Assembly (NCBI RefSeq): GCF_965152275.1
Contig: NC_134246.1
Location: forward strand, 34,532,151 to 34,596,150
Source of the DNA: Natator depressus
Lineage: Eukaryota
Reading direction: 5' to 3'
Length of the DNA: 64,000 bases
A model generated the notes under the pieces. It saw only the letters and a list, made by a program, of their open reading frames with translations. It had not been told where the DNA came from and searched no databases. Of the stretch, positions 1 to 45,620 are shown in pieces. A program made the translations under genes and the position numbers. Numbering within the stretch: position 1 is the stretch's first letter; the number at the start of each line of letters is the position of its first letter.

Positions 1-1267
1 GGTCCCCAGGAGGCAGTGCTGGCCGCCAAGGTGGCCATCAGTGAGCTGCTGATCCTGATGGGCAGGGCAGTGCCCTCAATGGGCTGGTTCTTCCGGCCAT
101 GCCCAGGGCTCAGCCTGTTCCTCGGGAGGGAGACGGCACCGGGCTCCGGGCGGGCGCTGTGGAGAGGCTTGGTGGCGAGTCCGGCCCGGACAGCGGGGCT
201 AGTGTGGTGACCTGGAGGGTGCTGAGCCGGCGAGGGGCTCCTCACACCTGCCTGGAGGTCTGCTCCCCGCCAGGGGCCATGGGACCGGCAGCCGGGGTGG
301 TGCTGCTGACCCTGGAGGCCGTGGCCCGGGCACCTCTGTGGCCATCTGCATGGACTTGGAAGGCGCGTGCCTGGTGGAGGCTGTGGCTGAGGCCATCGAC
401 ACCTTTGCCCGAGGCCATCCCGCCGCCCCCCTGAGCAGTGTCTCCATGGTGGCTGCCGACGGGGCCCTGGTGGCCACCTTCCATGGGGCATGTGCCAAGC
501 AGTGGCCGCCTGGCGAGAGCTGGCAGGAGCTGCTGGGGAATGTCCTCCGGGCCCAGGAGAAAGTCAGCACCCAGGTGGTCAGCGGGTCCCTCGCCAGCCA
601 GAAGGTCAGTACCTTGGTTAGAGCGGGGGCTGGGAGCCAGGACTCCTGGGTTCTATCCCTAGCACCTTCTCTCCCAGCTGCTCTGTAGGAAGACAGTCTC
701 TCTAGGGCTCATCTTGTTTGGAGCCCCCCGGGGCTGTTGTCCCCAGGCCCAGAGGGGGGAGCGGTGAGCCCCCAAGGAGGTGGTCCGAGCGTCTGTTCAT
801 GCTCCTTGGCTCTGTGTTGGAGACAGACAGATGCGGTGGTGCTGCCGGTGGTGCTGGAGACAGATGGGCTGGAATGGTGCCCTCAGGAGGTCCGGGCCCT
901 GGCCGAGAGGGCGCTGGGAGCTGCAGGCCACAGCAGGGAGCTCCAGCCGGGGAAGGTGCTGACAGTGCTGGGCACGGCCCTCCCGGATCTCCACTGCAAA
1001 GTGCTGTACCTTGTGCAGCTGGATGGCGAGGCACTGCAGCAGCAGGGGGCACCTGAGGTAAAAGGGGGGGCACCCTGTACCCCACGGATCCCTGCTGCAG
1101 CCCCTAGATCTCCCCTCTCCCTCTGCTACGCAGCACCACTAGATGCCTGGGACAGGACGTACCAAGGAGTTTAGGTGCCTAGACAGGCCTTAGCACATCT
1201 AAAGAGCCGATGAGGCGCCACTCTATCTTTAGGCTCCTAAACCCCTTGGTACACCGGGCCTTTACGA

Positions 1268-1384
1268 ATATCACTCACTAGAGCAAAAAGAACAGGAGTA
1301 CTTGTGGCACCTTAGAGACTAACCAATTTATTAGAGCATAAGCTTTTGTGGGCTACAGCTCACTTCATCGGATGCATAGAATGG
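1268..1384. repeat. Half copy (one arm only) of the abundant hairpin/palindromic repeat family.
   Basis: aaaaagaacaggagtacttgtggcaccttagagactaaccaatttattagagcataagcttttgtgggctacagctcacttcatcggatgcat; the same family as 1497-1722. Confidence 0.6.
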
Positions 1385-1496
1385 AACATAGAGTAACCAA
1401 ACAGCGTCCTGGAGAAATTGATGTATTTTAGTTTTCATAGAAAAGCCCATAAACTGTAAAGTTGTGGCAAACATTTTCTGTCCACCATATCTGGTT

Positions 1497-1722
1497 TCAG
1501 AGTAACAGCCATGTTAGTCTGTATTCGCAAAAAGAAAAGGAGGACTTGTGGCACCTTAGAGACTAACCAATTTATTTGAGTATGAGCTTTCGTGAGCTAC
1601 AGCTCACTTCATCGGATGCATCCGATAAAGTGAGCTGTAGCTCACGAAAGCTCATGCTCAAATAAATTGGTTAGTCTCTAAGGTGCCACAAGTACTCCTT
1701 TTCTTTTTGCATATCTGGTTTG
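1497..1722. repeat. Near-perfect palindromic (snap-back) repeat of ~225 bp, flanked by an 11-bp direct repeat atatctggttt.
   Basis: The left arm cagagtaacagccatgttagtctgtattcgcaaaaagaaaaggaggacttgtggcaccttagagactaaccaatttatttgagtatgagctttcgtgagctacagctcacttcatcggatgcat mirrors a reverse-complement right arm. The flanking ccatatctggttt at 1485-1496 matches atatctggttt at 1723-1733. Confidence 0.7.
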
Positions 1723-1844
1723 TTAGGGAAATTCAGAATCTTTTCTCTAAGTCCTAGGAAAATCGGAAAGTCTTTCTTCCCCCAAAATGGATTTTTCCCC
1801 CCAAACTGAAAATTTTGGCCAAAACCTGAACACAAGAACATAAG

Positions 1845-2045
1845 AACGGCCATACTGGGTCAGATCAAAGGTCCATCCAGCCCAGTATCCTGTCTTCCAA
1901 CAGTGGCCAATGCCAGGTGCCCCAGAGGGAATGAACAGAACAGGTCATCATCAAGTGATCTATCCCCTGTCGCCCATTCCCAGCTTCTGGCAAACAGAGG
2001 CTAGGGACCCTGTCCCTGCCCATCCTGGCTAATAGCCATTGTTTT
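1845..2045 (+). repeat. Fragment of a second abundant interspersed repeat family (aacataagaacggccatactgggtcagatcaaaggtccatc...).
   Basis: The same ~50-bp terminus recurs at 15087-15300 (as inverted termini) and at 39340-39400. Confidence 0.5.
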
Positions 2046-2521
2046 ACCATTTTGTTTTAGCATCAGCAGGTTTCGTAAACTGAACGTTTGTGCTAAGCCC
2101 CCAGAGATGTTACTGAAAAGCAGCTGGTTTGCTGGAAGCAGTTTCTGAAAACTAATTTTTCCCTGCCAAAAATGAAACTTTTTACTGAAGCCGTTGCCAT
2201 GGGCAGTTTCCGAAAAGCAAAAATATGTCTTGAAAACCAAAAGAACTTGCCAGTGGGCTCCTGGTTTCCCTGGCATCCATAGAAACTTCCAGGGGAGAAA
2301 AGCCCGGGAGTTCTTACGGGTTAACCAAGCCGGGGGAAAAACGGTGTTAGGTCATCCTCGAAACTAAGATAGCTGAGAATCCTAAATACCTTATGTTTCT
2401 CAGCCTCTGTCGCCAGCTAGGTGCCCATAATGGACAGACATCGCTCGTCTGTCTCCTCTCTCCTCGAGTTCCCACTTCCAGAACTGGAGGCCTTGCTGAA
2501 GGAATATCGGCTTACCTCTCT

Positions 2522-2522
<1 letters not shown>

Positions 2523-2582
<60 letters not shown>
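2523..2582. repeat. (GATA)15 microsatellite lying 57 bp upstream of a PARP14-like exon acceptor.
   Basis: Perfect gatagata... run. Confidence 0.95.
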
Positions 2583-2639
2583 GAGAATCTTCTTACATAT
2601 TCCCATAATATATCCCCCCGTTGTTCTCGGTCCCCGCAG

Positions 2640-2840
2640 GTCATGCACCAGATGATGCGATGCTGCCTCTGTTCCGTGTACGGCATGTTCCTGGAGTCCG
2701 TGTCCTTCCCACTGCTGGGGGCTGGTCAGACCCTGCCGGCCATGCTGGAGGAAATCAGCTGCTTCCTGGAGCACCAGCCCAACACGTGGATGAAACTGGT
2801 GCAAATTGTCCACCCGCTGGGGCTGCCGGCTCCTCGCCTG
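2640..2840 (+). pseudogene. PARP14-like exon (macro-domain C-terminal part), 201 nt. AG acceptor at 2638-2639, GT donor at 2841.
   Basis: The open frame reads VMHQMMRCCLCSVYGMFLESVSFPLLGAGQTLPAMLEEISCFLEHQPNTWMKLVQIVHPLGLPAPRL, followed by gtaaac. Confidence 0.45.
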
Positions 2841-4194
2841 GTAAACGGGGCAGGTCACCAGGCGGGCGTGGCGGCGGGAGGTGCAGGGCATGACTCCTGG
2901 GTTCCATCCCTGGCTTTGGAGGGGGAGAGTGGGATCTAAGGGTTAGAGTTCTGGGGGGGCAGGCTGGGAGTCAGGACTCCCGGGTTCTATACCCGGCTCT
3001 GGGAGGGGCATGGCTCATAAATAAACTGACCCCTTTCTTGCATTCCTTGGCAGGTGGCTGAAGATCCCAGCACCCGGGCTGGTAAGCTGAGTGTGATACC
3101 GGTGACCCCTTGCCGTTTCCTGCGTTCCAGGGCCTGTGCCAGAGCGCCCCCTGGTGGAGCTGCCACGGTGGCTAGGTCTGAGGTTTGCACCCCAGGCTGT
3201 CTCTTCGCTTGACTTCTCCGGCGCAGGCCCCGCTCCCTGGTGCTTCTCAGAAATGGGGCCCCCAGGAGCAGCGCCAACCCCCAAGTCTCTCCAGCCATGG
3301 GGCACTGAGGGTTACGGTCAGGGGCCCATGATAGTTGATGGGCCCCCAACTCCAGTACGACTTACAGCCATACCCACAGTAATATGCACAGCCCTGCCTC
3401 AGTTTCCCCACCGCCCGGAAGCATTCTCTGGGCCGGAGGTCAGAGCCCGCCCTCCTGGGCTGGTCCTGGAGCTCCAATCCAATGGCTCCTTGTGCCTCGC
3501 CCCTGTCAGGACCAGCAGCAACCCCTGCTGCTGTGGACCCCCACACTCGCAGCCCTCTTGGCCTCCCACCACCTTAAGTAGAAGGCAGGTGGGTGGGTGC
3601 CATGCACCAGCAGCATGACTCAGGCAGCTGGGAGTCGTCAAAGGCAGCAGCTGCCAGCCTCTTGCTGGGGTTGCCGAAGGGAGGCATGTCCCCAGTTCCC
3701 CAAATCACCAGGGCCAGCCATATTGAAATGCTGCATCGCCACCACAGCCCTGACTGCTGGGGGGAGAGCGCCCCCTGCTGAAGTCCTGCTCCCTGCAGCA
3801 CAGCGCCCCCTAGTGTTGCCACGGGGCCAGCCCTGTCTGCCAGGGGAAAGTGCTGAGTTCCACCCTGCTCCCGGCAACACAGCGCCCCCTAGCGAAACAA
3901 TGGGACCAGCACTGACTGCTGGGGGAGAGTGCCCCCTGCTGAGCCCCCACCCCACTCCCTGTAGCACAGCACCCCTAGCGCCGCCCTGGAGCCAGCCCTG
4001 CAAGCTGGGGGGAGAGCTGAGCCCCCCAGCGCCATTTGAGGTATCTCAGAAGGACTCAAGTGTATCTAACCCCCCCATATAGCTTGATTCCTCCTCCCAT
4101 TGTACAATCCATGGCAGTCGGATGCCTGACCTCCCAGGTCCAGGCCCCTCCCGGCTCCCTGATGGGTCCCAGCCGTTCTTCTCTCTCCCCGCAG

Positions 4195-4432
4195 AGGCCT
4201 TGGGGTTCTGCTGGCCAGAGCACCCCCTCTTCCTCCGCTATGTGGACGAGAGCGCAGCTGTGCGGCGGGAGTTCAAGGGACGCCTGAAGGAGGCCGGCTA
4301 TGGATTCCGGGCCTGTCCCCAGTGGGGAATCCTGACCTTCCCAGCAGTGGCCAGCCCTGCGGAGCTGCATGGCTGGGAAGCGGTGTTTTGCTCGGTGCGC
4401 CAGCATTACGTGGTGCATCGCGAGGGCTGGGA
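4195..4432 (+). pseudogene. 5' part of the large PARP14-like exon, interrupted at 4433 by a CR1 insertion.
   Basis: Acceptor ccccgcag|AGGCC at 4193-4194. The frame reads EALGFCWPEHPLFLRYVDESAAVRREFKGRLKEAGYGFRACPQWGILTFPAVASPAELHGWEAVFCSVRQHYVVHREGWE and then runs straight into the CR1 3' tail. Confidence 0.5.
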
Positions 4433-7235
4433 GAATCATAGAATCATAGAATATCAGGGTTGGAAGGGACCTCAGGAGGTCATCTACTCCAACCCCCTGC
4501 TCAAAGCAGGACTGATCCCCAACTAAACCATCCCAGCCAGGGCTTTGTCAAGCCTGACCTTAAAAACTTCCAAGGAAGGAGATTCTACCATCTCCCTAGG
4601 TAACGCATTCCAGTATTTCACCACCCTCCTAGTGAAAAAGCTAAACCTCCCCCACTGCAACTTGAGACCATTACTCCTTGTCCTGTCCTCTTCTACCACT
4701 GAGAATAGTCTAGAACCATCCTCTCTGGAACCACCTCTCAGGTAGTTGAAAGCAGCTATCAAATCCCCCCTCATTCTTCTCTTCCGCAGACTAAACAATC
4801 CCAGTTCCCTCAGCCTCTCCTCATAAGTCATGTGTTCCAGACCCCTAATCATTTTTGTTGCCCTTCGCTGGACTCTCTCCAATTTATCCACATCCTTCTT
4901 GTAGTGTGGGGCCCAAAACTGGACACAGTACTCCAGATGAGGCCTCACCAATGTCGAAGAGAGGGGAACGATCACATCCCTCGATCTGCTCGCTATGCCC
5001 CTACTTATACATCCCAAAATGCCATTGGCCTTCTTGGCAACAAGGGCACACTGCTGACTCATATCCAGCTTCTCGTCCACTGTAACCCCTAGGTCCTTTT
5101 CCACAGAACTGCTGCCTAGCCATTCAGTCCCTAGTCTGTAGCTGTGCATTGGGTTCTTCCGTCCTAAGTGCAGGACCCTGCACTTATCCTTATTGAACCT
5201 CATCAGGTTTCTTTTGGCCCAATCCTCCAATTTGTCTAGGTCCCTCTGTATCCTATCTCTGCCCTCCAGCGTATCTACCTCTCCTCCCAGTTTAGTATCA
5301 TCCGCAAATTTGCTGAGAGTGCAATCCACACCATCTTTCAGATCATAGATGAAGATATTGAACAAAACCGGCCCCAGGACCGACCCCTGGGGCACTCCAC
5401 TTGACACCGGCTGCCAACTAGACATGGAGCCATTGATCACTACCCGTTGAGCCCGACAATCTAGCCAACTTTCTACCCACCTTATAGTACATTCATCCAG
5501 CCCATACTTCTTTAACTTGCTGACAAGAATACTGTGGGAGACCGTGTCAAAAGCTTTGCTAAAGTCAAGAAACAATACATCCACTGCTTTCCCTTCATCC
5601 ACAGAATCAGTAATCTCATCACAGAAGGCCATTAGATTAGTCAGGCATGACCTTCCCTTGGTGAATCCATGCTGACTGTTCCTGATCACTTTCCTCTCAT
5701 GTAAGTGCTTCAGGATTGATTCCTTGAGGACCTGCTCCATGATTTTTCCGGGGACTGAGGTGAGGCTGACTGGCCTGTAGTTCCCAGGATCCTCCTTCTT
5801 CCCTTTTTTAAAGATTGGCACTACATTAGCCTTTTTCCAGTCATCTGGGACTTCCCCCGTTCGCCACGAGTTTTCAAAGAGAATAGCCAATGGCTCTGCA
5901 ATCACATCCGCCAATTCCTTTAGCACTCTCGGATGCAACTCGTCCGGCCCCATGGACTTGTGCACGTCCAGCTTTTCTAAATAGTCCCTAACCACCTCTT
6001 TCTCCACAGAGGGCTGGCCATCTATTCCCCATGTTGCGATGCCCAGCGCAGCAGTCTGGGAGCTGTCCTTGTTAGTGAAGACAGAGGCAAAAAAAGCATT
6101 GAGCACATTAGCTTTTTCCACATCCTCTGTCACTAGGTTGCCTCCCTCATTCAGTAAGGGGCCCACACTTTCCTTGGCTTTCTTCTTGTTGCCAACATAC
6201 CTGAAGAAACCCTTCTTGTTACTGCTGACATTTCTTGCTAGCTGCAGCTCCAGGTGCGATTTGGCCCTCCTGATTTCATTCCTACATGCCCGAGCAATAT
6301 TTTTATACTCTTCCCTGGTCATATGTCCAAACTTCCACTTCTTGTAAGCTTCTTTTTTATGTTTAAGATCCGCTAGGATTTCACCATTAAGCCAAGCTGG
6401 TCGCCTGCCATATTTACTATTCTTTCGACTCATTGGGATGGTTTGTCCCTGTAACCTCAACAGGGATTCCTTGAAATACAGCCAGCTCTCCTGGACTCCT
6501 TTCCCCTTCATGTTAGTCCCCCAGGGGATCCTACCCATCCGCTTCCTGAGGGAGTTGAAGTCTGCTTTCCTGAAGTCCAGGGTCCGTATCCTGCTGCTTA
6601 CCTTTCTTCCCTGTGTCAGGATCCTGAACTCGACCATCTCATGGTCACTGCCTCCCAGATTCCCATCCACTTTTGCTTCCCCCACTAATTCTTCCCTGTT
6701 TGTGAGCAGCAGGTCAAGAAAAGCTCCCCCCGTAGTTGGCTCGTCTAGCACTTGCACCAGGAAATTGTCCCCTACGCTTTCCAAAAACTTCCTGGATTGT
6801 CTATGCACCGCTGTATTGCTCTCCCAGCAAATATCAGGAAAATTAAAGTCACCCATGAGAACCAGGGCGTGCGATCTAGTAGCTTCTGCGAGTTGCCGGA
6901 AGAAAGCCTCATCCACCTCATCCCCCTGGTCCGGTGGTCTATAGCAGACTCCCACCACTACATCACTCTTGTTACTCACACTTCTAAACTTAATCCAGAG
7001 ACACTCAGGTTTTTCTGCAGTTTCGTACAGGAGCTCTGAGCAGTCATACTGCTCCCTTACATACAGTGCTACTCCCCCACCTTTTCTGCCCTGCCTGTCC
7101 TTCCTGAACAGTTTATAACCATCCATGACAGTACTCCAGTCATGTGAGTTGTCCCACCAAGTCTCTGTTATTCCAATCACGTCATAATTCCCTGACATCA
7201 CCAGGACCTCCAGTTCTCCCTGCTTGTTTCCAAGG
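4433..7235 (-). mobile_element. CR1 LINE copy 1 (sense on the minus strand). It is 5'-truncated (no ORF1 or 5'UTR), retains a near-complete ORF2, and ends in an (ATTCTATG)n 3' tail. It is inserted into a PARP14-like coding exon with a candidate 5-bp TSD, GGGAG, at 4428-4432 and 7234-7238.
   Basis: The plus strand at 4434-4450 reads gaatcatagaatcataga, the reverse complement of the CR1 ATTCTATG tail. Homology to CR1 copy 2 holds up to ~7235 and then switches to exon sequence. Confidence 0.8.
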
Positions 7236-7294
7236 GAGGACCTGCTGGAGGCCCTGGCCGCCGAGCCGTCCCTGGTAAAGGCGTTCGGGTCCAT
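4523..7294 (-). CDS. CR1 ORF2, apurinic-like endonuclease plus reverse transcriptase (923-aa open frame). The first ~19 codons ([19 protein letters not shown]) are read from the antisense of the host exon and are not CR1.
   Basis: CR1 homology begins at [31 protein letters not shown] motifs are [32 protein letters not shown] and the YADD-type [10 protein letters not shown]. The C-terminal part reads ...[47 protein letters not shown]. Confidence 0.8.
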
Positions 7295-8389
7295 CTGGGT
7301 CTATGACGGGGAGGACTTTGTCGGCTTGGTTGGGGAGATGGCACCGTTCCTCCAGCGCCTGACTGTTAGGGCCTTCCAGAGGCAGCTGGTGAGCCAGGAG
7401 TACCTGGCCGAGCCACTGCCCAGGTGGGTCATCATCAAGGACATGGTGGAGAAGGAGCTTCCTGACCCCCATGTCAGAATGGAGCTTTGACAGGGCACCC
7501 CAGCTATCATCACCTTCCAGGGACCCCGCCGGCAGGTGGCCGAGGCAGAGAGCCGGTGCCAGCAGCTGCTCAGGGCGTTCCAGGTCCTGTCGGTGCCCGT
7601 CTCGCCTCTCCAGGCGCGCTTCATCCAGGAGCACTGAGAGGATGTCTTCACCCCCAGCTTCTTCCTGGACTGGGGCATTGCCACCATCCTAGAGCTCCCA
7701 GACGGTGACTCAGGGATTGAGCTGGCCTGGGACCTCCCCGCTGGGCCGGCGCCCTCTGAGGGCATCTCAGTGGCTGGGCTGGAGCAAGAGAAGCTGCAGC
7801 ATGCAGCGGAGCTGCTGCAGGGCCTGGTGGGCTGCCGGACGGTGCTGATTGAGGAGGGCGTGCACTGGGTCACGCAGGGTCAGGAGTGGGCCGAGCTGCT
7901 GGCCGGGCTGGGCGCCTGGCAGGATGTGTCCCTGCACTGTGCCGCGAGCCAGGAGCAGCTGGTGGTGGTGGGCTTCCAGCCCTATGTGGCCCAGGCGGAG
8001 GCAGCCATCCGGGAGTATTTGCAGAGTAAATCACTGGCCGAGGAGCAACTGGACGTCCCCCGGCCAGAGCTGGCAGAAACCGGGGTGCAGCTGCTGCGCC
8101 TTATGGACTGGGAGCACCTCCAGGTCGCCGTCCAGCTGCACCCCAACCCTCGGGTGCTGTCCCTGGGGCTGCGGGGCCTCCTGCACCACCTGCAGTTGGC
8201 CAGCAGGGCCATCAAGGCTGACCTGGAGTCCCTGGTGCTGGGCACACTGCCCATCAGGGCCAGGCCTTGGGCGAGCACCTCTGTGGGGAGGGGGCGACCC
8301 TCCTGCAGGACCTGGCCCAGCAGCTCTGCTGTGTGGTGAGCCTGCGAGGAGACCCCCCTACAAATGGCCCATCCAGCACCTGTGGGCAG
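7239..8389 (+). pseudogene. 3' part of the large PARP14-like exon. It is in the same frame as 4195-4432 once CR1 and the TSD are removed. It carries two in-frame TGA codons (7488, 7635) and a frameshift near 8255-8270.
   Basis: Frame 0 continues as [17 protein letters not shown]...HVRMEL*QGTPAIITFQGPRRQVAEAESRCQQLL...QEH*EDVFTPSFFLDWGIATI...LVLGTLPIRA. It then shifts to LGEHLCGEGATLLQDLAQQLCCVVSLRGDPPTNGPSSTCGQ, followed by gtgaga. Both stops are consistent with CGA>TGA changes. Confidence 0.5.
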
Positions 8390-8903
8390 GTGAGAGCTGT
8401 AGGGGGCAGCCTGAGGGCGGGCAGGCCGCCCAGGGTCGCTGGGTTTGTCAGCGTCAGAGACATGGGAGCTGGTGCTACAAGAACTGGGAAGGGGGCTGTC
8501 TGGGCTGAGAGGACTGGACGCCTGGGACCCATTTCAGGTCTGAGAGGGCAGTGGGGTCTAGTGCGTGGAGCAGGGGGGCTGGGAGCTAGGACTCCTGGGT
8601 TCTCTGCTGGCTCTGGGAGGGGAGTGGGGTCTAGTGTTTAGAGTGGGAGCTGGGGCGGTGTGTGGGTTCTATTCTCTGCTTTGCCCCTGACTTCCTGCCT
8701 CTCTCCCCTTCTTTGTGCCTCAGTTTCTGGGTCTGCGAACCTGGCGAGTCGCCATCCCGCCCAGCCAGGTGTCTGTGTTCCCATGGCAAGGCAGGGCACC
8801 TGAGGCTTGGGGCAGGGGTTTGGGGGAGCAGCACGGCCATGGGCTGCATGGAGGAGCCAGTGCCCACTGTGCCTGCTTCACCTGGCTCTGTCCTTCTCCG
8901 CAG

Positions 8904-8958
8904 GGCAGAGCTCTGCAGGCTCCCAATGCCGCAAGGAAGCCCCAGAAGGTGCAGGCAG
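8904..8958 (+). pseudogene. Small PARP14-like exon (55 nt).
   Basis: tccgcag|GGCAGAGCTCTGCAGGCTCCC...GCAGGCAG|gtaaga; the open frame is continuous with its neighbours. Confidence 0.35.
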
Positions 8959-9138
8959 GTAAGAGCAACACAGGGACCTGGAGGGCTGGGCCGCACTCCC
9001 AGTCCATAGCCCCCTGCTAACCTAGCCCTGGGCCCCCTCCAGCTCTGCCAGTACCCCTCACTCCTGACCCGCTGCCCCTGCTAACCGAGCCCCACTGGTG
9101 CTGACCCACTTATTCAGGACCCCTCTCTGCGTTCCCAG

Positions 9139-9671
9139 GGGCCCCCGAGGGGCTGGAGCTCCGCATGGTGGGCCAAGAGCCTGATGTGGGCCAGGTGAAG
9201 GCAGCCGTGGCCGGCTTCATGGCCCAGTTCCACGACGAAAGCATCTGCAACGTGGAGCTGGTGGCCGTTGGCACCCAGGCCCTGCGGGAGCTCAGCCAGG
9301 CCTCACGGTACCACTTACCCGTCAGCCTCCAGCGCCTGCCGGGCAATGTGCTGCGGGTGCGGGGCGCCTGGGAGGATGTGGCCAAGGCCGTGGCCGCTGT
9401 CCACGCCAGGATCCAGGCTGCCCAGTGCCAGCGGGTGGAGGCCGAGGTGCTGTACGGGCTGGTAAAGTGGCAGCACCTGGCCCCGGCCGGCTGGCGTCCC
9501 TTTAGTGTGGCCACCAACCAACAGCTGGAGACGGCATATGCAGAGATCGAGTGGGACGGGCAGAGATCGAGTGGGACGGGCAGCGGGTGGAGATCGACCT
9601 GCTCAAGGCAATGGGCGTTGCGCCAGGCACTGGGGCCCTCATCCACCTCCGCCGGGAGATCTGCCTGTTGG
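9139..9671 (+). pseudogene. PARP14-like exon with a WWE-like domain, carrying a frameshifting 20-bp tandem duplication at 9541-9580.
   Basis: Acceptor ttcccag|GGGCC, donor TTGG|gtgagg. Length is 533 nt including the duplication and 513 nt without it. The read is ...WQHLAPAGWRPFSVATNQQLETAYAEIEWDGQ, then the duplicated cagagatcgagtgggacggg, then RVEIDLLKAMGVAPGTGALIHLRREICLLG. Confidence 0.5.
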
Positions 9672-9949
9672 GTGAGGAACCATCCCCCTTCCAAAGACAC
9701 CTTCCCCACTGCCCCACTGCTGGAGGGGCACCGGTGTGGGACTGGCTGCCTTGGGGGCAGGGAATAGGCCATGGCTCCGTTCCCCTCCAGGGGGTGCCAG
9801 CTCCCATCCAACCTCAGGGGACTGGGAATGGGGCAGGGAATGGGGCACGGGGCCTTTCCCCTCCTGGGGGTGCCAGCTCCCATCCAGCCCCAGGGCAGGG
9901 ACTGGGCCTGGGGCGGCTCCCCACTGACAGACCCCATCTCTCATTGCAG

Positions 9950-10086
9950 ACAGATGCCTTGCCCTGCACTGGGAGCCCATGGGCGAGAGCCTGGTGAGGC
10001 TGGTGGAGCTAGCGGAGCGCTCGGAGGAGTACCGGGAGATGGCTGAGGGGTTTAAGCGGATGGCCCTGGGCTACTGCATCCTCCAC
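9950..10086 (+). pseudogene. PARP14-like exon (start of the catalytic region).
   Basis: tcattgcag|ACAGATGCC...CTCCAC|gtgagt. It encodes ...ESLVRLVELAERSEEYREMAEGFKRMALGYCILH. Confidence 0.45.
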
Positions 10087-10475
10087 GTGAGTGTGAGGGG
10101 CTGGGAGGCTCTGGGGCTGGGGCTGAGAGACACCCCCTGTGGGTCCCAGAGCCCAGTCAGGGGGAGAGAGGAATCTCTCCTAGCCCCAGCTAGGGCGGAG
10201 GAGTTCAGTGAGCGGGGGCTGCCCTGGCACTGCCTGGTTGGGGGGGATGGGACAGAGGTCTTTGGAGGGCTGTCTGTGGGGGCAGAAAGGCCAGACGGCC
10301 ACGGTCATTGGGGGGTGTCCTCTAACGGAGCTGCAGGAGATTGGGGACCTGGGACTGAAGCTCAGGCCAGGGCAGGATGGGAAGACCTCCAAAGGCTGGG
10401 TGCCCCCCCATCCCACATGGCGGTGCCCTTGGCAGCTCCTGGCCATGCCCACGGTCCCTACCCTGCCTCCCGCAG

Positions 10476-10648
10476 ATCCAGAGGGTGCAGAACCGGGTCC
10501 TGTGGGTCTCCTATTGCTGGCAGTGCCGTTGGATGGAGGAGAAGAACCCGCCGGGCGAGCTCAACGAGCATCTCCTCTACCACGGCACGCAGCCCGAGAA
10601 CAGGCACTCCATCCAGGAGATCGGCCTCAGGATCACCTGTCGCAAAGG
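10476..10648 (+). pseudogene. PARP catalytic-domain exon carrying the conserved His (LYHGT).
   Basis: cccgcag|ATCCAGAGG...CGCAAAG|gtgggt. It encodes IQRVQNRVLWVSYCWQCRWMEEKNPPGELNEHLLYHGTQPENRHSIQEIGLRITCRK. Confidence 0.5.
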
Positions 10649-10734
10649 TGGGTCTGGGCCCCCGGGGGACTTCTGGGCTGGGGGCACCAGGACTGTATGC
10701 TGTCCCCGCCCCCCGGGCCACCCAGATGGGAACT

Positions 10735-10965
10735 GGGGCCCCCTAGAGGGGACAAGCCCCGTGTCCCATTTCCTGCCCCCCTTAGCCAGCCAATCCCCAC
10801 CCTGGGGCTGGATGGGAGCCGGTGCCCCCTAGAGGGGAAAGGCCCCATGTTTCCGCCCCACTTGAGGGGAAAGGTTCTGTGTCCCATTCCTCACCCCCCA
10901 GCACCAGCCAGTCCCCTGCCCTGGGGCCGGTTTGGGGCCGGTGCCCGCCCTAGGAAAAGGGCCCT
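10735..10965. repeat. GC-rich intronic tandem repeat with a ~75-bp unit, about 3 copies. A related array lies in inverse orientation at 9770-9900.
   Basis: Units of the form ccctagaggggacaagccccgtgtcccatttcctgcccccttagccagccaatccccaccctggggctggatgggagccggtgc. They generate spurious overlapping ORFs. Confidence 0.55.
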
Positions 10966-11769
10966 GTCATAAATATAAAGGGAAGGGTAACCACCTTTCT
11001 GTATACAGTGCTATAAAATCCCTCCTGGCCAGAGGCAAAATCCTTTCATCTGTAAAGGGTTAAGAAGCTCAGGTAACCTCGCTGGCACCTGACCCAAAAT
11101 GACCAATGAGGGGACAAGATACTTTCAAATCTGGAGGGGGCGGGGGAAAGGCTTTTGTCTGTCTGTGTGATACTTTTGCCGGGAACAGATCAAGGATACA
11201 AGCCCTTCAACTCCTGTAAAGTTAGTAAGTAATCTAGCTAGAAATGCATTAGGTTTTCTTTGTTTTGGCTTGTAAATTCGCTGTGCTGGAGGGAATGTGT
11301 ATTCCTGTTTTTGTATCTTTTTGTAACTTAAGGTTAGAGGGATTCTCTATGTTTTGAATCTGACTGCCTGTGAGATTATCTTCCATTCTAATCATACAGA
11401 GTGTTTCTTTTATCTTTGTTTTGTTCTTCTAGTAAAGTTCTGTTTTTTTAAGAATCTGATTGGGTTTTGAGGGTCCTAAGAAACCCAAGCTGGTCTGTGC
11501 TCAACTTGTTTATTCTCAAGCCTCCCCAGGAAAGGGGGTGTAAGGGCTTGGGGGGATTGCTGGGGGAAGAGGAACTCCAAGTGGTCCTTTTCCCTGGTTC
11601 TTTGTTAAAGCGCTTGGTGGTGGCAGCATACGGTTCAAGGACAAGGCAAAGTTTGTGCCTTGGGAAAGTTTTTAACCTAAGCAGGTAGAAATAAGCTTAG
11701 GGTCTGTCAAGGTTCCTTCCCCACTCTGAATTCTGGGGTACAGATGTGGGGACCTGCATGAAAGACCCT
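10965..11769 (-). mobile_element. Solo LTR of the Gmr1-like family in reverse orientation. The terminal ~65 bp (11705-11769) sit in forward orientation, a terminal inversion. It is inserted into the 75-bp intronic tandem array.
   Basis: It starts tgtcataaatataaagggaagggtaacc, the reverse complement of the LTR 3' end at 43900-43930. After ...ataagcttaggg, the sequence at 11705 reads tgtcaaggttccttccccactctgaattctggggtacagatgtggggacctgcatgaaagaccc, which is the LTR 5' end in forward orientation. Confidence 0.65.
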
Positions 11770-11898
11770 CTATGTCCCATTCCCTGCCCCCTTAAGCCAG
11801 CCAGTCTCAGCCTGCGGCGGGTCAACGCTGGCACTCCCTCAAAGGACAACGGCACCGTGTCCCATCTCTCAGTGTCTGGGGGTGTCTGTTCTGTTCTC

Positions 11899-12207
11899 TC
11901 ATTTCTCACAGTGGGCATCTATGGCCAGGGCCTGTACTTCGCGGCGGAGGCTGCACGGTCGGCGGACTAAGCTAAGCCCGACGCCCATGGGCACCGCTTT
12001 ATGTTCCAGGTGCGGGTGCTGACAGGGCAGTTCACCCAGGGCAAGAAGGACATGGTACTGCCCCCGGAGAAGCCGGACGGGGGTGGCCGTTACGACAGCG
12101 TGGTAAACATGGTCTCCCGCCCCAGCATTTTTGTCACCTTGTTCGACGACCTCACCTACCCTGAATACCTTATCACCTTCCGGGGCACCAGGCTGCCCCT
12201 GAACTGA
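11899..12207 (+). pseudogene. Terminal PARP catalytic exon with an in-frame TAA at 11968-11970. The natural stop is TGA at 12205-12207.
   Basis: tctcacag|TGGGCATCTATGGCCAGGGC. Both ORF pieces (11746.. and 12001..) are in the same frame, split only by TAA. The read is GIYGQGLYFAAEAARSAD*AKPDAHGHRFMFQVRVLTGQFTQGKKDMVLPPEKPDGGGRYDSVVNMVSRPSIFVTLFDDLTYPEYLITFRGTRLPLN. Confidence 0.55.
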
Positions 12208-13804
12208 GAACTGTGCTGCCCTGGGACAGGCCACAGGACCTGGGCACTGCTTGCCTGGCAGCCAAAGAACAGCTGTGGGGCCGGGCAGCATCGGGCATGG
12301 AACATGTGCACATGTGTGCTCGCGCATTGGTTAGATTCGGAACCGCTCGGCTGCATGTCCCCGGCCCTATACTGCTGACAGCTAATGGAGATTCTCAAGA
12401 GCATTCCTGGCATTCACAGCTCCAGCAGAGAGGACTGACTGGGCCAGGGGATGGGAAAGAAAGATGAGCTGAGACACATCCTGCTGCCCCCCACCACTCA
12501 GTTGTGTGTCATCAGCCCAGTACAGCTGCCCACTAGTGGGGATTCTCCATTTGCCAACAGCTGAGGGAATGTCCAGCTTGTTTCTGGGAGGCTGTATAAT
12601 TTCCTGTTACAATCTCCTGGCTGTTTCAGTCCTGTGGGCCTGACTCAGGGAAGGGCACAGCATCTTGTTGATCCAGCTGCACCCATGAGGAAGGAGGCAT
12701 GCTGGTAGGAGAAGATGGTTATAATTTCATGTAAATCAAAATATTTCACAAAAAGCAGGGGGCTCTGAAGGAGTTTTCTGGATAGGAAAAAGCACACTGC
12801 AATGAACATTTTCATTGTTTTCCAATCTCAATTCATGTCTTGATTCTGCTGTCAAATATCTAAAAAAAAATATTTTTTTGGATTATTTTGGTCCCCATCC
12901 CCCCTTCGTCTTCTTCTTTTTAAACATTTTCCCTACTGGACATGCAGGTGAGGGGACTTATATTGTCCCTCTAGTCCAGTGATCTCCAAACTGTGGGGTG
13001 TGCCCCTCTATGGGGGTGTGGAGGAACATTTGGGGCGGGGCACAGCAAGCTTGGGCCAGCCTGCTGTGGGGTGGGGAGCGAGCGCTACAGAGCCCTGCTC
13101 TGCGCCCAGCTCCACTCCATCCCCAGCCCCAGCTGCTGCTCCCCTCCCAGCCCCTGGCCCTGGCTAAGGGTTGCCAGGTGTCCGGTTTTTGACTGGAAAG
13201 TCCAGTCGGAAAGGGGACCTGCCCGTGTCCAGTCAGCATTGCTGACCGGACACTAAAAGTGTGGTTACCTGCAGTAAACAGCCTTTGCCACTCAGGGGCA
13301 GGAAGCCTGGAGGAGCATTCTGGGATGGCTCCGGCAAAAGAGGTACTGGCAGCTCCCCTGTCCTGCCCCAAGCACGACTCTCCCTCTCCGACCTTTTCCC
13401 AGCCACCCCCTGCCCTCTCACCCTGGCTCCTGGGGGATTGAGGACTAGATAAGGGGGGACATGATTGAAAATTTTTGGGGACCACTGCTCTAGCCCCAGA
13501 TCCTTTCTACATAAGACAGCAGATCAATGATCCACCCAGCCCGGTGACCCTTTTATGTGCCTGCCCTGATGCATGGGTCCCTTCAGTCTCTCCTGCCCAA
13601 GTTGCTCTGGTGTGGTTAAATAATGAAAGGGTCTTGGGCCTGGAGTGAGCGTGACTCTGTATCCTGGTGAGCCTGGCCCTCACACGGGCTAGGGGAGACC
13701 CCAGGTCTAATTCTCCTGCTCCAGTGAGTCATTATTCATCCCCACTGGAACAGCTTCAGCAGAAGAGACTTAGAGAGCCCTGACCACTGAGTTAAGTGAC
13801 ACCA

Positions 13805-14596
13805 TGTCAGGGTTCCTTCCCCACTGAATTCCGGGGTACAGATATGGGGACCCGCATGAAAGACCCCCTAAGCTTATTCTTACCAGCTTAGGTTAAAACT
13901 TTCCCAAGGCACAGATTCCTTTCTTGCCTTGGGATCGCTGCCACCACCAAGTGATTTAACAGACAATCAGGGAAAGGACCACTTGGAGTCCTAGTCCCCC
14001 AAAATATTCCCCCAAGCCTACACCCCCTTTCCTGGGGAAGGCTTCAGCATATATCCTCACCAATAGGTTACGAAGGGACTACAGACCCAAACCCCTGGGT
14101 CTTAGAACAATGGAAAAATCAGTCAGGTTCTTAAAAAGAAGGATTTTATTTAAAGAGAAAAAGGTAAAAGAATCACCTCTGTAAACTTAGGCTAGTAGTT
14201 AACCTTACAGAGTAGCAGTAAATTCAAAGAGCACAGAGGAACCCCCTCTAGCCTTCATTTCAAAGTTACAACAAAACAGGGATAAACCTCCCTCTAGCAA
14301 AGGGAAAATTCACAAGTTGAGAAAACAAAGATAAACTAATATGCCTTGCCTGGCTGTTACTTACAAGTTTGAAATAAGAGACACTTGTTTAGAAAGATTT
14401 GGAGAACGTGGATTGATGTCCGAAGAGCGAACGGCCACAGAAACAAAGAACCCAAAACAAAGCCTCTCCCAACCCCAGATTTGAAAGTATCTTTTGTCCC
14501 TATTGGTTCGTTTGGTCAGGCACCAACCAGGTTACTTGAGCTTCTTAACCCCTTACAGGTAAGGAGGCATTTTAGGCTACCCTTATGGTTATGACA
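13805..14596 (+). mobile_element. Solo LTR of a diverged relative of the same family (TGTCAGGG...TTATGACA).
   Basis: tgtcagggttccttccccactgaattccggggtacagatatggggacccgcatgaaagaccccctaagcttat ... gagcttcttaacc...ttatggttatgaca, colinear with the LTRs at 43106-43930 and 49034-49838. Confidence 0.6.
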
Positions 14597-23230: not shown

Positions 23231-24155
23231 CGGGTGGTGCTGGGTACATATCGTCAGGCCCCCGTTCCCTGCCTCCCTCCGTGAAAGCAGGGGCAGACAA
23301 TCATTTTGCGCCTTTTTTCTTGAGTTACCTGTGCAGACGCCATACCACGGCAAGCATGGAGCCCGCTCAGCTCACCGTATGTCTTCTGGGTGCTGGCAGA
23401 CATGGTACTGCATTGCTACACAGCATCAGTTAATTGCCTTTTGGCAGCAGACAGTGCAGTATGACTGGTAGCCGTCGTCGACATAGTCCTGGGTGCTCTT
23501 CTAACGAGGCAAATGGGCAAACATAGGAGTGACTCAGCCAGGTCATTTCCCTTTTAAGTTTCGTCTCGTGGCGATTGAGTCCTACCGGCAGTGTGCTGTC
23601 TTTTAACCTCCAGCCAGCAGAAGATGATGGCTAGTTGTCATACTGCACTGTCTTCTGCCGAGCACCCAGGAGATGATGACGGCTAGCGGTCATACTGCAG
23701 AGTCTGCTGCCAGCAAGATGTATAAAGATAGATGAAGTGGCTCAAAACAAGAAATAGACCAGATTTGTTTTGTATTCATTTTCTCCTCCTTCCCTCTGTG
23801 AAATCAACGGCCTGCCAAACCCAGTTTTGAATTCTATCCTTGAGGTTTTGAGTTCTATCCTTGAAGGGGCCATTCAGTTTCTCGCAAAGCCACCCCCTTT
23901 GTTGATTTTAATTCCCTGTAAGCCAAACCTGTAAGCCATGTCGTCAGTTGCCCCTCCCTCCATCAGGGCAACGGCAGACAATCGTTCCATGCCTTTTTTC
24001 TGTGCAGACGCCATACCACGGCAAGCATGGAGCCCGCTCAGATCACTTTGACAATTAGGAGCACATTAAACACCACATGCATTATCCAGCAGTATATGCA
24101 GCACCGGAACCTGGCAAAGTGATGCCGGGCGAGTAGGCGACGTCAGCGCGGTGAC

Positions 24156-25316
24156 GTGAGTGATGAGGACATGGACACAGACTTCTATCAAAGCAGGGGC
24201 CCTGGCAATGTGGGCATCATGGTGCTAAAGGGGCAGGTTCATGCGGTGGAACGCCGATTCTGGGCTTGGGAAACAAGCACAGACTGGTGGGATGGCATAA
24301 TGTTGCAGGTCTGGGACGATTCCCAGTGGTTGCGAAACTTTCGAATGCGTAAGGGCACTTTCATGAAACTTTGTGACTTGCTTTCCCCTGCCCTGAGGCA
24401 CAAGAATACCAAGATGAGAGCAGCCTTCACAGTTGAGAAGCGAGTGGCGATAGCCCTGTGGAAGCTTGCAATGCCAGACAGCTACTGGTCAGTCGGGAAT
24501 CAATTTGGAGTGGGCAAATCTACTGTGGGGGCTGCTGTGATGCAAGTAGCCAACGCAGTCAAAGATCTGCTGATATCGAGGGTAGTGACCCTGGGAAATG
24601 TACAGGTCATAGTGGAGGGCTTTGCTGCAATGGGATTCCCTAACTGCGGTGGGGCCATAGATGGAACCCATATCCCTATCTTGGCACCAGAGCACCAAGC
24701 CGGCGAGTACATAAACCGCAAGGGGTACTTTTCAATAGTGCTGCAAGCTCTGGTGGATCACAAGGGATGTTTCACCAACATCAATGTGGGATGGCCAGGA
24801 AAGGTACATGACGCTCACATCTTCAGGAACTCTGGTCTTTTTCAAAAGCTGCAAGAAGGGACTTTATTCCCAGACCAGAAAATAACCATTGGGGATGTTG
24901 AAATGCCTATATGTATCCTTGGGGACCCAGCCTACCCCTTAATGCCATGGCTTATGAAGCCATACACAGGCACCCTGGACAGTAGACAGGAGCTGTTCAA
25001 CTACAGGCTGAGCAAGTGCAGAATGGTGGTAGAATGTGCATTTGGACGTTTAAAAGCGCGCTGGTGCAGTTTACTGACTCGGTTAGACCTCAGCGAAACC
25101 AATATTCCCACTGCTATTACTGCTTGCTGTGTGCTCCACTATATCTGTGAGAGTAAGGGGGAGATATTTATGGTGGGGTGGGAGGTTGAGGCAAATCCTC
25201 TGGCTGCTGGTTTCGCACAGCCAGACACCAGGGTGGTTAGAAGAGCACAGGAGGGCGCGGTGCTCATCAGAGAAGCTTTGAAAACCAGTTTCATGACTGG
25301 ACAGGCTACGGTGTGA
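24156..25316 (+). CDS. Harbinger DDE transposase (DDE_Tnp_4 / HARBI1-like), intact 386-aa ORF.
   Basis: Candidate catalytic residues are AIDGTHIPILAPEH (D), ILGDPAYPLMPWLMKPY (D) and VVECAFGRLKARW (E), with the usual spacing. There are no internal stops. Confidence 0.75.
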   Translation: MSDEDMDTDFYQSRGPGNVGIMVLKGQVHAVERRFWAWETSTDWWDGIMLQVWDDSQWLRNFRMRKGTFMKLCDLLSPALRHKNTKMRAAFTVEKRVAIALWKLAMPDSYWSVGNQFGVGKSTVGAAVMQVANAVKDLLISRVVTLGNVQVIVEGFAAMGFPNCGGAIDGTHIPILAPEHQAGEYINRKGYFSIVLQALVDHKGCFTNINVGWPGKVHDAHIFRNSGLFQKLQEGTLFPDQKITIGDVEMPICILGDPAYPLMPWLMKPYTGTLDSRQELFNYRLSKCRMVVECAFGRLKARWCSLLTRLDLSETNIPTAITACCVLHYICESKGEIFMVGWEVEANPLAAGFAQPDTRVVRRAQEGAVLIREALKTSFMTGQATV

Positions 25317-26625: not shown

Positions 26626-27297
26626 TTAAAAGGTACACTCACCAGAGGTCCCTTCTCTTCCTGGCAGGTCTGGGAGGCAGCCTTGGGTGGGTCCAGGGGT
26701 GACTGCCTCCAGGTCCAGGGTGAGAAACAGTTCCTGGCTGTCGGGAAAACCGGTTTCTCCGCTTGCTTGCTGTGAGCTATCTACAACTTCATCATCATCA
26801 TCTTCCTCGTCCCCAAAACCTGCTTCTGTGTTGCCTCCATCTCCATTAAAGGAGTCAAACAACAAGGCTGGGGTAGTGGTGGCTGAACCCCCTAAAATGG
26901 CATGCAGCTCATCATAGAAGCAGCATGTTTGGGGCTCTGAATCGGAGCAGCCGTTTGCCTCTCTGGTTTTCTGGTAGGCCTTAAGTTTCACGCGGCATTG
27001 CTTCAGGTCCCTGTTATGGCCTCTGTCCTTCATGCCCTGGGAGATTTTGACAAATGTTTTGGCATTTCGAAACCTGGAACGGAGTTCTGATAGCACGGAT
27101 TCCTCTCCCCATACAGAGATAAGATCCCATACCTCCCATTTGGTCCATGCTGGAGCTCTTTTGCGATTCTGGGACTCCGTCGTGGTCACCTCTGCTGATG
27201 AGCTCTGGCCAGCGTGACAAGCTGCAGGTGAACATGCAAACAGGAATTTGAAATTCAAAAGTTCACGGGCCTTTTCCTGTCTACCTGGCCAGTGCAT
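26626..27297 (-). CDS. Harbinger Myb/SANT-like DNA-binding protein, first exon (223-aa open frame). A GTGAGT splice donor on the minus strand at 26637-26642 suggests a downstream exon.
   Basis: RKRAPAWTKWEVWDLISVWGEESVLSELRSRFRNAKTFVKISQGMKDRGHNRDLKQCRVKLKAYQKTREANGCS is Myb/SANT-like, followed by an acidic tail (DEEDDDDEVVD). The minus-strand sequence reads gacctctg|gtgagtgtacc. Confidence 0.6.
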   Translation of the reverse strand: MHWPGRQEKARELLNFKFLFACSPAACHAGQSSSAEVTTTESQNRKRAPAWTKWEVWDLISVWGEESVLSELRSRFRNAKTFVKISQGMKDRGHNRDLKQCRVKLKAYQKTREANGCSDSEPQTCCFYDELHAILGGSATTTPALLFDSFNGDGGNTEAGFGDEEDDDDEVVDSSQQASGETGFPDSQELFLTLDLEAVTPGPTQGCLPDLPGREGTSGECTF

Positions 27298-27299
27298 CT

Positions 27300-27742
27300 C
27301 AGTTGAGAGTGCTGTCCAGAGCGGTCACAATAGAGCACTCTGGGATAGCTCCCGGAGGCCAATACCGTCTAATGGCATCCACAGTACCCCAAATTCGACC
27401 CGGAAAGGCCGATTTAAGCGCTAATCCACTTGTCAGAGGTGGATTAAGGAAATCAATTTTAAGAGCCCATTAAGTCGAAAAGAAGGGCTTCATCGTGTGG
27501 ACGGGTGCAGCGTTACATCAATTTAACGCTGCTAAATTCGACCTAAACTCCTAGTGTAGACCGGGGCTCAGTGGGATACATTCTCCCATCGACTCCCCTT
27601 ACTCTTCTCATTCTGGTAGAGTACAGGAGTCAATGGGAGAGCGATCTGCAGTCGATTTAGCAGGTCTTCACTAGACCCACTAAATCGACCACTTATGCAT
27701 CGATTGTCACGCGTCGATCCCCCGGTAAGCGTAGACAAACCC
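27300..27742 (-). repeat. Harbinger right TIR / subterminal region.
   Basis: Inverted match to 22970-23230. It also matches the MITE at 61006-61299. Confidence 0.6.
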
Positions 27743-28638
27743 TAAGTTAAAGGTCACAACCATATATGGACCTCATGCCTTAACTCATCTTGAAAACCTG
27801 TCCCTTAGTCTCTCTGTGCCTCAGTGTCCTTTGTGACATGAGAACAATAGCTGTTCCCTGCACCGCATCAGTGTTGTGAGGATAAATGCATTGAAGCCTG
27901 TGAGATGCTCCGATACTGTGGTGGTCATATAACTGAGTGGACTCAGGGAGCACAGCACAGGAGACCCCGGTTCATATTGCTTGCGCATCATTTGGATCCA
28001 GTCCTTTCCTCTATTCACATGAGTCATTCCATTGAAGTCACATGACTAAAGTGATCCCCTTTCCTACATGTTTAATGGATCAGGCCTTTGGCCCCTGATA
28101 TTTGGATTTTTGGATTATTATTATGATTATTAGTATTACAATTGGTGATAATTTAATTATAAGACAATATTAATAACTATGATATACTCAAAGTTTAAAT
28201 TGTCCCTGGAGCTTTAAAAGACATAAAAGGAAGAGAGGGCCATCTCCTCAGTCAGTGTTAATTGGAATCAATAAGCCAAGTCCCCATCTGGTGCAAAATC
28301 AGCCATAGCACCACTGGAGTCAGTTGGGCTAGATTTGCAACTGGTGTAAGTTGGATATACGAATGATATATGAATCCTGGTCCTAGGTCATCGGGGGGGC
28401 TCCTCTGGTAGCAGCCTTCTCTGGAACAGCAGGGCAGCGATCAGCATCCTGGTCTTGGGTAGTGGGAAAGGTTCTCTGGGGGTCCTCCTCCTGAAGAGCT
28501 GGTGAGATGTTGCTCCAGGCTGTGAGGTCCCAAAGAGCCATCCTTGTTGCACCAGGTCTCCCTGCAGAGGTATCCCAGGGCTTTTCTTCAGCCAGGTGCT
28601 GATTCTTTCATCCTTGCTGGTGGTCCATGTCACAGAAC

Positions 28639-39672: not shown

Positions 39673-39957
39673 CAACTTTCTATTGTGTCAGGGGTGCTCT
39701 CCCCCGCTCTGCCCCAGGCCCTGCCCCCACTCCTCCCCTTCCCCAAAGGCCCCATGCCTTCCCCGCCTCTTTCTGCCCTGCTCTGCCATGCCCTGCCTCA
39801 TCCCACCCTGTTCTGCCCCCTCCCCTGAGTACACCCTGCCCTCGCTCCTCCCCGCTCTGTCCCAGTGCCTCCTGCATGCTGCTAAACAGATGATCACTGG
39901 GGAGAAAGGGGAAAGTTGATTGGGGATGGGTGATGAGCACCCACCATATTTTTTCAA

Positions 39958-44521: not shown

Positions 44522-44691
44522 GAGTGTCTCTTTAAGCTGGTTAAAGGCCTTCTGACACTCTTCAGTCCACTGAACTGCATTTGGCTGGGGTTTTTTGGTT
44601 AGGTCTGTTAGTTGGGCAGCAATTTGGCTGTATTGTGGTACAAATCACTGTAATATCTGACCAAGCCTAAGAAGGATTGGACCTGTTTTTT

Positions 44692-45342: not shown

Positions 45343-45620
45343 CCAGTAAGGTTGGTCTCTAAATGGGTGAGCATTACCTGTGTCAATGGAGTGTTATGCC
45401 CGTTCAGTCAGTCCTGGGGTGGCTGAGAACATTGACGCGTAGCTAGTGCACAGCTCCTTGATCTGCTGTCACTGCATACGCCCAAGGGTCATGGAGAGGT
45501 TCACCTCTTCCACATCACCAGCACTTTTCCCTTCGTAGTAGACACCTTCAGGCCACTCAGCGTCACCTCCTCCCTGGGCTGTAAACTGACAAACCTTTAA
45601 TTCTCTGGAATAAAAGGGAT

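Follow-up and report, generated by a model that had tools for sequence, protein, structure and literature searches.

The stretch of DNA analysed here (the window) comprises 64,000 bp of the genome of the flatback sea turtle, Natator depressus (NC_134246.1, positions 34,532,151 to 34,596,150 of the forward strand). Positions 1-12207 carry a broken gene, which is very probably an unprocessed pseudogene of a turtle mono-ADP-ribosyltransferase resembling PARP14 and PARP15. Window positions 1-14000 are 100% identical to Natator chromosome OZ223866.1 (GCA_965152195.1), in which window position 1 corresponds to position 34,373,863. The Natator assembly is based on 35-60x PacBio HiFi coverage and Hi-C data (PMC12448945). 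The orthologous loci of Chelonia mydas, Eretmochelys imbricata, Caretta caretta, Chrysemys picta, Trachemys scripta and Platysternon megacephalum were compared with it. Locus records are designated L001 (Natator), L002 (Chelonia), L004 (Trachemys), L005 (Chrysemys) and L007 (Caretta). The flanks of the Natator locus are syntenic with those of other turtle loci of the same family.

Exon structure and lesions of the Natator gene

Exons were placed by tblastn with turtle proteins (e.g. Chrysemys P0078 and P0072) and by exact splice motifs. There are ten exons, A to J, all on the + strand, and all nine introns are of the GT-AG type. The intron positions agree with those of the gene models in Chrysemys and Chelonia. 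The same ten exons taken from Chrysemys picta (L005) form an uninterrupted frame of 1,236 codons with an identical stop position; these exons are the reference frame for all lesion calls. In Chrysemys and Chelonia the start ATG is found about 115 codons upstream of the window, contiguous with exon A; window 1-12207 carries the 3' ~90% of the gene. An AG at window position 1 was considered as a splice acceptor; it was ruled out because exon A runs on upstream to the ATG.

Measured against the Chrysemys frame, the Natator gene has four frameshifts and three nonsense codons within the window, as well as a 2.8-kb CR1 element. Two of the frameshifts lie in exon A and are found in Natator only. One is a 1-bp deletion in a G run at 123/124, where five other species have one extra G; of all the lesions, this alone is so small that a homopolymer assembly error could explain it. 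The other is a 7-bp deletion at 330/331, where the sequence CGCAGGT or TGCAGGT is missing. In exon E, two in-frame TGA codons are likewise found in Natator only. The codon at 7488-7490 is CGA in all four alignable species (Chelonia, Eretmochelys, Chrysemys and Trachemys); at 7635-7637 the emydids have CGA, against CGG in Chelonia and Eretmochelys. The third nonsense codon, a TAA at 11968-11970 in exon J, replaces a tyrosine codon (TAC) which is present in six other species, and it cuts the ADP-ribosyltransferase (ART) domain short of the third residue of the catalytic triad.

The two remaining frameshifts are shared with other sea turtles. A 1-bp deletion in a G run at 8256/8257 leads to a stop at 8337 and is common to Natator, Chelonia, Eretmochelys and Caretta; the frame is kept at this point in the Chrysemys, Trachemys and gecko proteins. 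The same four cheloniids have a perfect 20-bp tandem repeat of 2.2 copies, GCAGAGATCGAGTGGGACGG, at 9540-9583 (Tandem Repeats Finder, TRF). The multi-species alignment places this repeat where the ancestral sequence has an imperfectly similar stretch of 18 bp. The net change is therefore +2 bp, not +20, and the resulting frameshift breaks the WWE domain in Natator. The -1 and +2 changes do not compensate one another. Parts of exons E and G of Caretta, Trachemys and Platysternon were left out of lesion scoring, as deletions or gaps lead to non-homologous alignment there. The lesions found in Natator only are based on one HiFi haplotype assembly.

All six lesions listed in the original prediction are thus real and lie where it had placed them: the CR1 in the large exon, two CGA>TGA-like changes, the loss of the tyrosine codon at 11968, a duplication in the WWE exon, and a frameshift near 8255-8270, which is the deletion at 8256/8257. 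The duplication stands as a perfect repeat; it is its effect on the frame that had to be reduced to +2 bp. At least two more lesions are present in the window (123/124 and 330/331). A further one lies upstream: exon A contains an insertion of 1,303 bp (L001 315-1617), which ends about 20 bp before window position 1, has TGTAAC...GCTTACA termini and is flanked by a 4-bp CCGG target duplication. It is found in Natator only, being absent from five other turtles, and it looks like a solo long terminal repeat (LTR).

The CR1 element is a 5'-truncated long interspersed element (LINE) of 2800 bp on the - strand, at 4434-7233 within exon E. It is flanked by a GGGAG target-site duplication (left copy 4429-4433, right copy 7234-7238). 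Chelonia, Eretmochelys and Chrysemys have an empty site with a single GGGAG; the insertion is thus specific to Natator. An open reading frame (ORF) of 923 aa runs through the element (4523-7294, - strand). Its ATG and first 20 codons come from the antisense strand of the host exon; the other 903 codons are CR1-derived ORF2 codons, free of interruption. ORF2 encodes an APE endonuclease and a reverse transcriptase (Pfam: Exo_endo_phos 3e-15, RVT_1 1e-35) and is ~60% identical to bird CR1-type ORF2, features that ally it with the CR1 LINEs of turtles and birds. An octamer repeat marks the 3' end of the element (4432-4452; TRF, period 8); such a repeat is a hallmark of CR1 3' ends. There is nothing unusual about this 5'-truncated element; it is notable only for its uninterrupted remaining ORF2 and its insertion in the Natator lineage. 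Compared with the 939-aa ORF2 of the family and with an older copy at 28636-31625, it lacks ~36 N-terminal codons, and it also lacks ORF1; it was therefore dead on arrival. Many full-length 939-aa ORF2 copies, 92-96% identical, are present in sea-turtle assemblies.

Two older, degenerate CR1 copies with fragmented ORF2 are found elsewhere in the window, at 28636-31625 and 39955-41846 (- strand). Their identity to the copy in exon E is 90% and 81%, respectively. The copy at 28636-31625 reaches further in the 5' direction than the exon-borne copy; an apparent truncation point common to two CR1 copies was rejected as an artefact of query length, as the older copy is longer at this end.

Exon A (1-604, with more of it upstream of the window) codes for the first macro-like region and for the beginning of the second; its donor site, AAG/GTCAGT, is at 604/605. 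Exon B (827-1057) is intact, as is exon C (2640-2840), which encodes the second half of macro-like domain 2 and has SFPLLGAGQT at 2703-2732. Micro-exon D (3054-3081; VAEDPSTRA) is intact and is also present in the Chelonia and Chrysemys proteins. The large exon E (4195-8389) has ~1.39 kb of coding sequence and is broken by the CR1, the two TGA codons and the 1-bp deletion. Exon F (8904-8958) is intact. Exon G (9139-9671) encodes a KH-like region and the WWE domain, with WQHLAPAGWRPF at 9468-9503. The ART domain starts in exon H (9950-10086), which is intact, and continues in exon I (10476-10647), also intact, where LLYHGT (10572-10589) contains the catalytic histidine. The last exon, J (11912-12207), contains GIYGQGLYFA (11914-11943), then the TAA, KPDAHG (11974-11991), PSIFVT (12121-12138) and YPEYLITF (12157-12180), and ends in the natural stop TGA at 12205. 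The good splice sites and the four catalytic signatures described from the sequence were all located. With its introns retained and multiple independent disabling lesions, the locus is a non-processed pseudogene; the original prediction had likewise argued against an old processed one.

The introns contain a (GATA)15 microsatellite and two ~77-bp tandem duplications (2522-2582, 3785-3932 and 9754-9895). SINE-like (short interspersed element-like) sequences with the translation GAGSQDSWVL recur within them.

Identity and domain content of the protein

Translations of single exons have almost no matches in Pfam; clear WWE and PARP matches come only from the frame-repaired, concatenated protein. 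In this translation the PARP catalytic (ART) domain is present (PF00644, 62.4 bits; cut-off 26.7). Directly upstream of it is a WWE domain (PF02825), which scores 24.0 bits in Natator after repair of the frame and 29.4 bits in Chrysemys P0068 (cut-off 21.1). The best solved relatives found by a PDB sequence search are the catalytic domains of PARP15 (131.5 bits, E=3e-37) and PARP14 (105.3 bits, E=3e-29). The catalytic residues are the histidine of LLYHGT, the tyrosine of GLYFA and the isoleucine of PSIFVT, which aligns with the leucine of KLFVV in PARP15. With the triad positions assigned from PARP15, we take this to be a triad of the H-Y-hydrophobic type (H-Y-I here), typical of mono-ARTs, instead of H-Y-E.

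The N-terminal part is less clear. No match to Macro (PF01661) was found by Pfam at E<=1 in the repaired Natator protein, P0078 or P0068, and no macro domain was found by PDB sequence search at E<=0.1. An hhalign comparison of the turtle N-terminal region with the tandem macro region of PARP15-like proteins gave a collinear but weak alignment (P=0.008). This alignment came from trimmed regions; hhalign on the whole alignment recovered only the ART domain. An AlphaFold2 model of the N-terminal region, made from an 11-sequence turtle alignment, was too poor to use (mean pLDDT 36.6). The KH_PARP14_8 match in the Chrysemys ortholog is weak (13.8 bits, below the cut-off), and neither RRM nor any other N-terminal domain was found by Pfam in the repaired protein. 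Of the macro-WWE-PARP architecture first assigned to the locus, the WWE and PARP domains stand; the macro domains are undetected by Pfam and PDB sequence search and are described here as macro-like.

Protein searches point to a turtle family. A search with the conceptual WWE-PARP translation has turtle proteins at the top, and a search with the macro-like and large-exon part finds turtle proteins only, nearly all of them named 'uncharacterized'. The nearest relative outside the turtles is a gecko PARP14-like protein (50% identity). Annotated PARP14 and PARP15 proteins are 35-41% identical, in the ART domain only. Judging from these comparisons, the locus is a divergent turtle PARP14/15-like paralog within a family of 'uncharacterized LOC' genes, not canonical PARP14. 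Members of the same family include Chelonia mydas LOC114022415, Chrysemys picta LOC135975160 and LOC135975264 with their paralog LOC135975451, Dermochelys LOC122456424, and Pelodiscus LOC142825933. These orthologs or paralogs show 71-93% protein identity, identical exon structure and syntenic flanks. Chrysemys has at least two copies (P0068 and its paralog P0072). Within this family the Chrysemys ortholog is open, whereas the cheloniid copies share two frameshifts, to which Natator adds the CR1, three stops and two deletions.

The turtle ART domain is nearest to the catalytic domains of human PARP14 (ARTD8) and PARP15 (ARTD7). The WWE domain is placed as in PARP14, the triad is also H-Y-hydrophobic, and the upstream region is collinear with two macro domains, at the weak P value given above. 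There are differences, however. The turtle protein would have ~1,350 aa, compared with ~1,800 in human PARP14, and has no detected RRM or N-terminal KH array. The usual glycine-rich ADP-ribose-binding motifs are replaced, for example by PLLGAGQT, in the macro-like domains. Finally, unlike its human relatives, the Natator gene is dead.

Distribution of the lesions and age of the loss

The lesions fall into two sets. The -1 change at 8256/8257 and the +2 change at 9540-9583 occur in four of four cheloniids but not in the emydids. Platysternon can be aligned at the repeat site alone and does not have the +2 change there; the gecko protein has the emydid frame at each of the two sites. Private to Natator are the CR1, the three stops, the deletions at 123/124 and 330/331 and the upstream 1,303-bp insertion. 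Comparison of the orthologs, suggested at the outset as a check for shared lesions, thus gives a mixed answer.

Other lineages have damage of their own. In Chelonia, one base pair is deleted at 7688. In Caretta, window 3810-8069 is missing, and with it almost the entire large exon (L007 9298-9476); Caretta also has a private TGA at window 231 and a private TAA at window 11920. Eretmochelys and Caretta have in common the deletion of 22 bp from the upstream portion of exon A. Trachemys, too, has a pseudogenised ortholog, with deletions of 23 bp and 4 bp, a 1-bp insertion and one TGA. In Chrysemys the ortholog is open, but it is annotated by NCBI as two genes.

Since the two frameshifts are common to four cheloniids, the inactivation predates the split of Chelonia and Natator, at least ~34 My (million years) ago; this split is dated to 33.6 Mya (PMC12448945). 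The pattern of lesions indicates that the gene was already broken in the common ancestor of the hard-shelled sea turtles (Cheloniidae) and that its loss is not recent. The retained splice sites had been read as a sign of a relatively recent loss. That argument fails against the shared frameshifts; the splice sites look crisp because cheloniid genomes differ by merely 2-3%.

Substitution rates fit the same picture. The ratio of nonsynonymous to synonymous substitution rates (dN/dS, or omega; NG86) is 0.63-0.67 when cheloniids are compared with one another and 0.38-0.40 when they are compared with Chrysemys; in non-marine comparisons the catalytic exons give 0.14-0.22. Cheloniid exons, which differ by 2.7-3.4%, have diverged no less than introns and flanks (2.1-2.4%). 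The rise in omega from ~0.39 to ~0.65, together with exon divergence at or above that of introns, fits a relaxation to near-neutrality, with omega not demonstrably 1.

At codon 7635-7637, Natator has TGA and the emydids have CGA, while CGG is common to Chelonia and Eretmochelys. If Natator is sister to Chelonia, this pattern requires homoplasy, incomplete lineage sorting or gene flow. Shared-derived substitutions are mixed as well: 12 join Natator and Chelonia, 10 join Chelonia and Eretmochelys, and 6 join Natator and Eretmochelys.

Four other accounts of the locus can be set against these data. Annotators have produced protein models across it (Natator P0002, Eretmochelys P0067, Chelonia P0001 and P0007), as would be expected if the gene were functional and its stops and frameshifts were intronic under the true splice pattern. 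These models leave out exons, contain mini-introns or are translated in the wrong frame. P0002, the Natator 'unnamed protein product', is an exact match to the frame-shifted translation of the window, with the frame-3 translation as its C-terminus; the first ~135 aa of Chelonia isoform X4 (P0001) are out of frame (frame-1); and in the Eretmochelys model P0067 an artificial mini-intron hides the 1-bp deletion at 8256/8257. The Natator annotation splits the pseudogene into gene calls at window 350-4526, 7443-8339 and 8364-12164. The Natator and Chelonia protein models are in part out-of-frame artefacts of a pseudogene. Placing the introns correctly leaves the frame broken: every lesion falls within a block that is collinear with both the intact Chrysemys frame and the gecko protein, and the stops sit where other species have CGA, CGA and TAC. 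A functional gene has a practically negligible probability. Assembly error as the source of the Natator-only lesions is extremely improbable too. The deletion at 123/124 does lie in a G run, a typical site of long-read consensus errors, but the HiFi coverage is high (35-60x; PMC12448945). Substitutions, a 7-bp deletion, and insertions of 2.8 kb and 1.3 kb with target-site duplications are atypical of HiFi errors, and the shared lesions recur in four independent assemblies.

The idea of a recent loss in Natator, with a functional gene in other sea turtles, is very unlikely, although six or seven of nine lesions are found in Natator only and Eretmochelys has no in-frame stop in its aligned coding sequence. 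It does not account for the uncompensated -1 and +2 changes in all four cheloniids, with a premature stop at 8337, nor for the further private lesions in Chelonia, in Caretta and in the Eretmochelys/Caretta pair; exons have also diverged as fast as introns. Survival of the locus as a gene for a truncated protein or a non-coding RNA, such as an N-terminal fragment or a regulatory long non-coding RNA, is unlikely, though less so. All splice sites are intact, five isoforms are predicted at the Chelonia locus, and dN/dS is below 1. Every part of the Natator coding sequence is damaged, however, and retention of splice sites is expected at 2-3% divergence. As judged from its sequence, the Natator gene cannot encode a functional enzyme.

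Some observations weigh against a pseudogene that has been dead since the cheloniid stem. Several Chelonia transcripts are predicted by NCBI, and the locus may still be transcribed. A 19-bp insertion found only in Chelonia (L002, aligned near window 9570) adds to the shared +2 to give +21 bp, which restores the frame of the WWE exon locally with seven extra residues, AEIEWDGQRSSGTGSGGWDGQRVEI; this could be accidental, or it could point to a short isoform that survives. The dN/dS among cheloniids is below 1 (P ~0.05 versus 1 by a rough count), and any residual constraint is inseparable from CpG or transition bias at synonymous sites. The Natator-only lesions, among them the 123/124 deletion in its G run, come from one assembly. 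The compared loci cover cheloniids, emydids and Platysternon, and the loss may fall before or after the split from Dermochelyidae. With these points taken into account, we put the probability that window 1-12207 is an unprocessed pseudogene of a turtle-lineage PARP14/15-like mono-ADP-ribosyltransferase, dead since the cheloniid stem and carrying more lesions acquired later, at roughly 0.9.

We infer the following order of events. The ancestral gene would have encoded a protein of ~1,350 aa with two degenerate macro-like domains, a KH-like middle part for which one large exon codes, and WWE and ART domains, the latter with an H-Y-I triad. In the stem of Cheloniidae, the frame would have been lost through the 1-bp deletion at 8256/8257 and through slippage or conversion that made the 20-bp repeat (net +2). 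The sequence would then have drifted neutrally. In the Natator lineage, two CpG-type CGA>TGA changes, a TAC>TAA change and the 1-bp and 7-bp deletions would have followed, along with the CR1 in the large exon and the LTR-like insertion upstream. By analogy with PARP14/15, the ancestral protein may have had an antiviral or immune function.

Neighbourhood and significance

The pseudogene had been seen as a possible member of an expanded PARP14 cluster. That suggestion is not borne out within the window, as no other PARP-like sequence was found at 12.5-64 kb. The suggestion of a unitary loss would concern the whole genome; the Natator sequence covered was 64 kb plus 1.6 kb, and no second PARP-like sequence is present in it. 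Two olfactory-receptor frames are present, at 54846-55838 (- strand; 7tm_4, 200 bits) and 37607-38572 (+ strand; 162 bits); the former has an ATG and is a complete ORF of 331 aa. An olfactory-receptor cluster therefore lies next to the pseudogene. Regions with such clusters have been called a divergence hotspot (PMC12448945). The same sea-turtle genome paper has no mention of 'PARP' or 'pseudogene', and hence none of this loss.

Mobile elements other than CR1 are also found. A 397-aa open frame at 24123-25313 (+ strand) encodes a DDE_Tnp_4 nuclease of the Harbinger/HARBI1 type, and a Myb/SANT-like DNA-binding frame lies nearby (26629-27324, - strand); the two may be a PIF/Harbinger transposon or a domesticated pair. 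Long pol frames of an LTR retrotransposon occupy 44096-47525 (- strand; RVT_1, 99 bits), with integrase-like sequence recognised by eye and gag-like frames to ~48.7 kb.

For annotation, the deposited turtle models at this locus (the Natator 'unnamed protein product' and the Chelonia LOC114022415 isoforms) are best regarded as frame-shifted artefacts of a pseudogene. The CR1 and LTR-like insertions, present only in Natator, are clean lineage markers. The CR1 also indicates activity, later than the Chelonia-Natator split, of a family in which many ORF2 copies are intact.

PARP14 and PARP15 have repeatedly been through gene birth and loss among vertebrates (Daugherty et al. 2014, PMC4038475). The present case is similar: a paralog specific to the turtle lineage has been pseudogenised in some lineages and kept in others. 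It differs in that it concerns a turtle and reptile paralog, whereas the earlier study dealt mainly with mammals. The locus adds a dated reptile example of this known pattern, dead in Cheloniidae and Trachemys and open in Chrysemys. It is an ordinary, well-resolved case of immune-gene turnover, and the current view of PARP biology is unchanged.

A broader reading is tentative and rather less likely to be right than wrong. The locus could represent an undescribed reptile or turtle PARP14-like clade, with a pair of degenerate macro-like domains followed by a KH-like region, a WWE domain and an ART domain of the H-Y-I type. This clade would be intact and constrained in Chrysemys, lost once in the stem of the hard-shelled sea turtles, and lost independently in Trachemys and probably in Dermochelys. 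If this is true, all cheloniids would have been without a putative innate-immune effector for at least 34 My, which could bear on their susceptibility to pathogens or on a relaxation of selection following their move into the sea.

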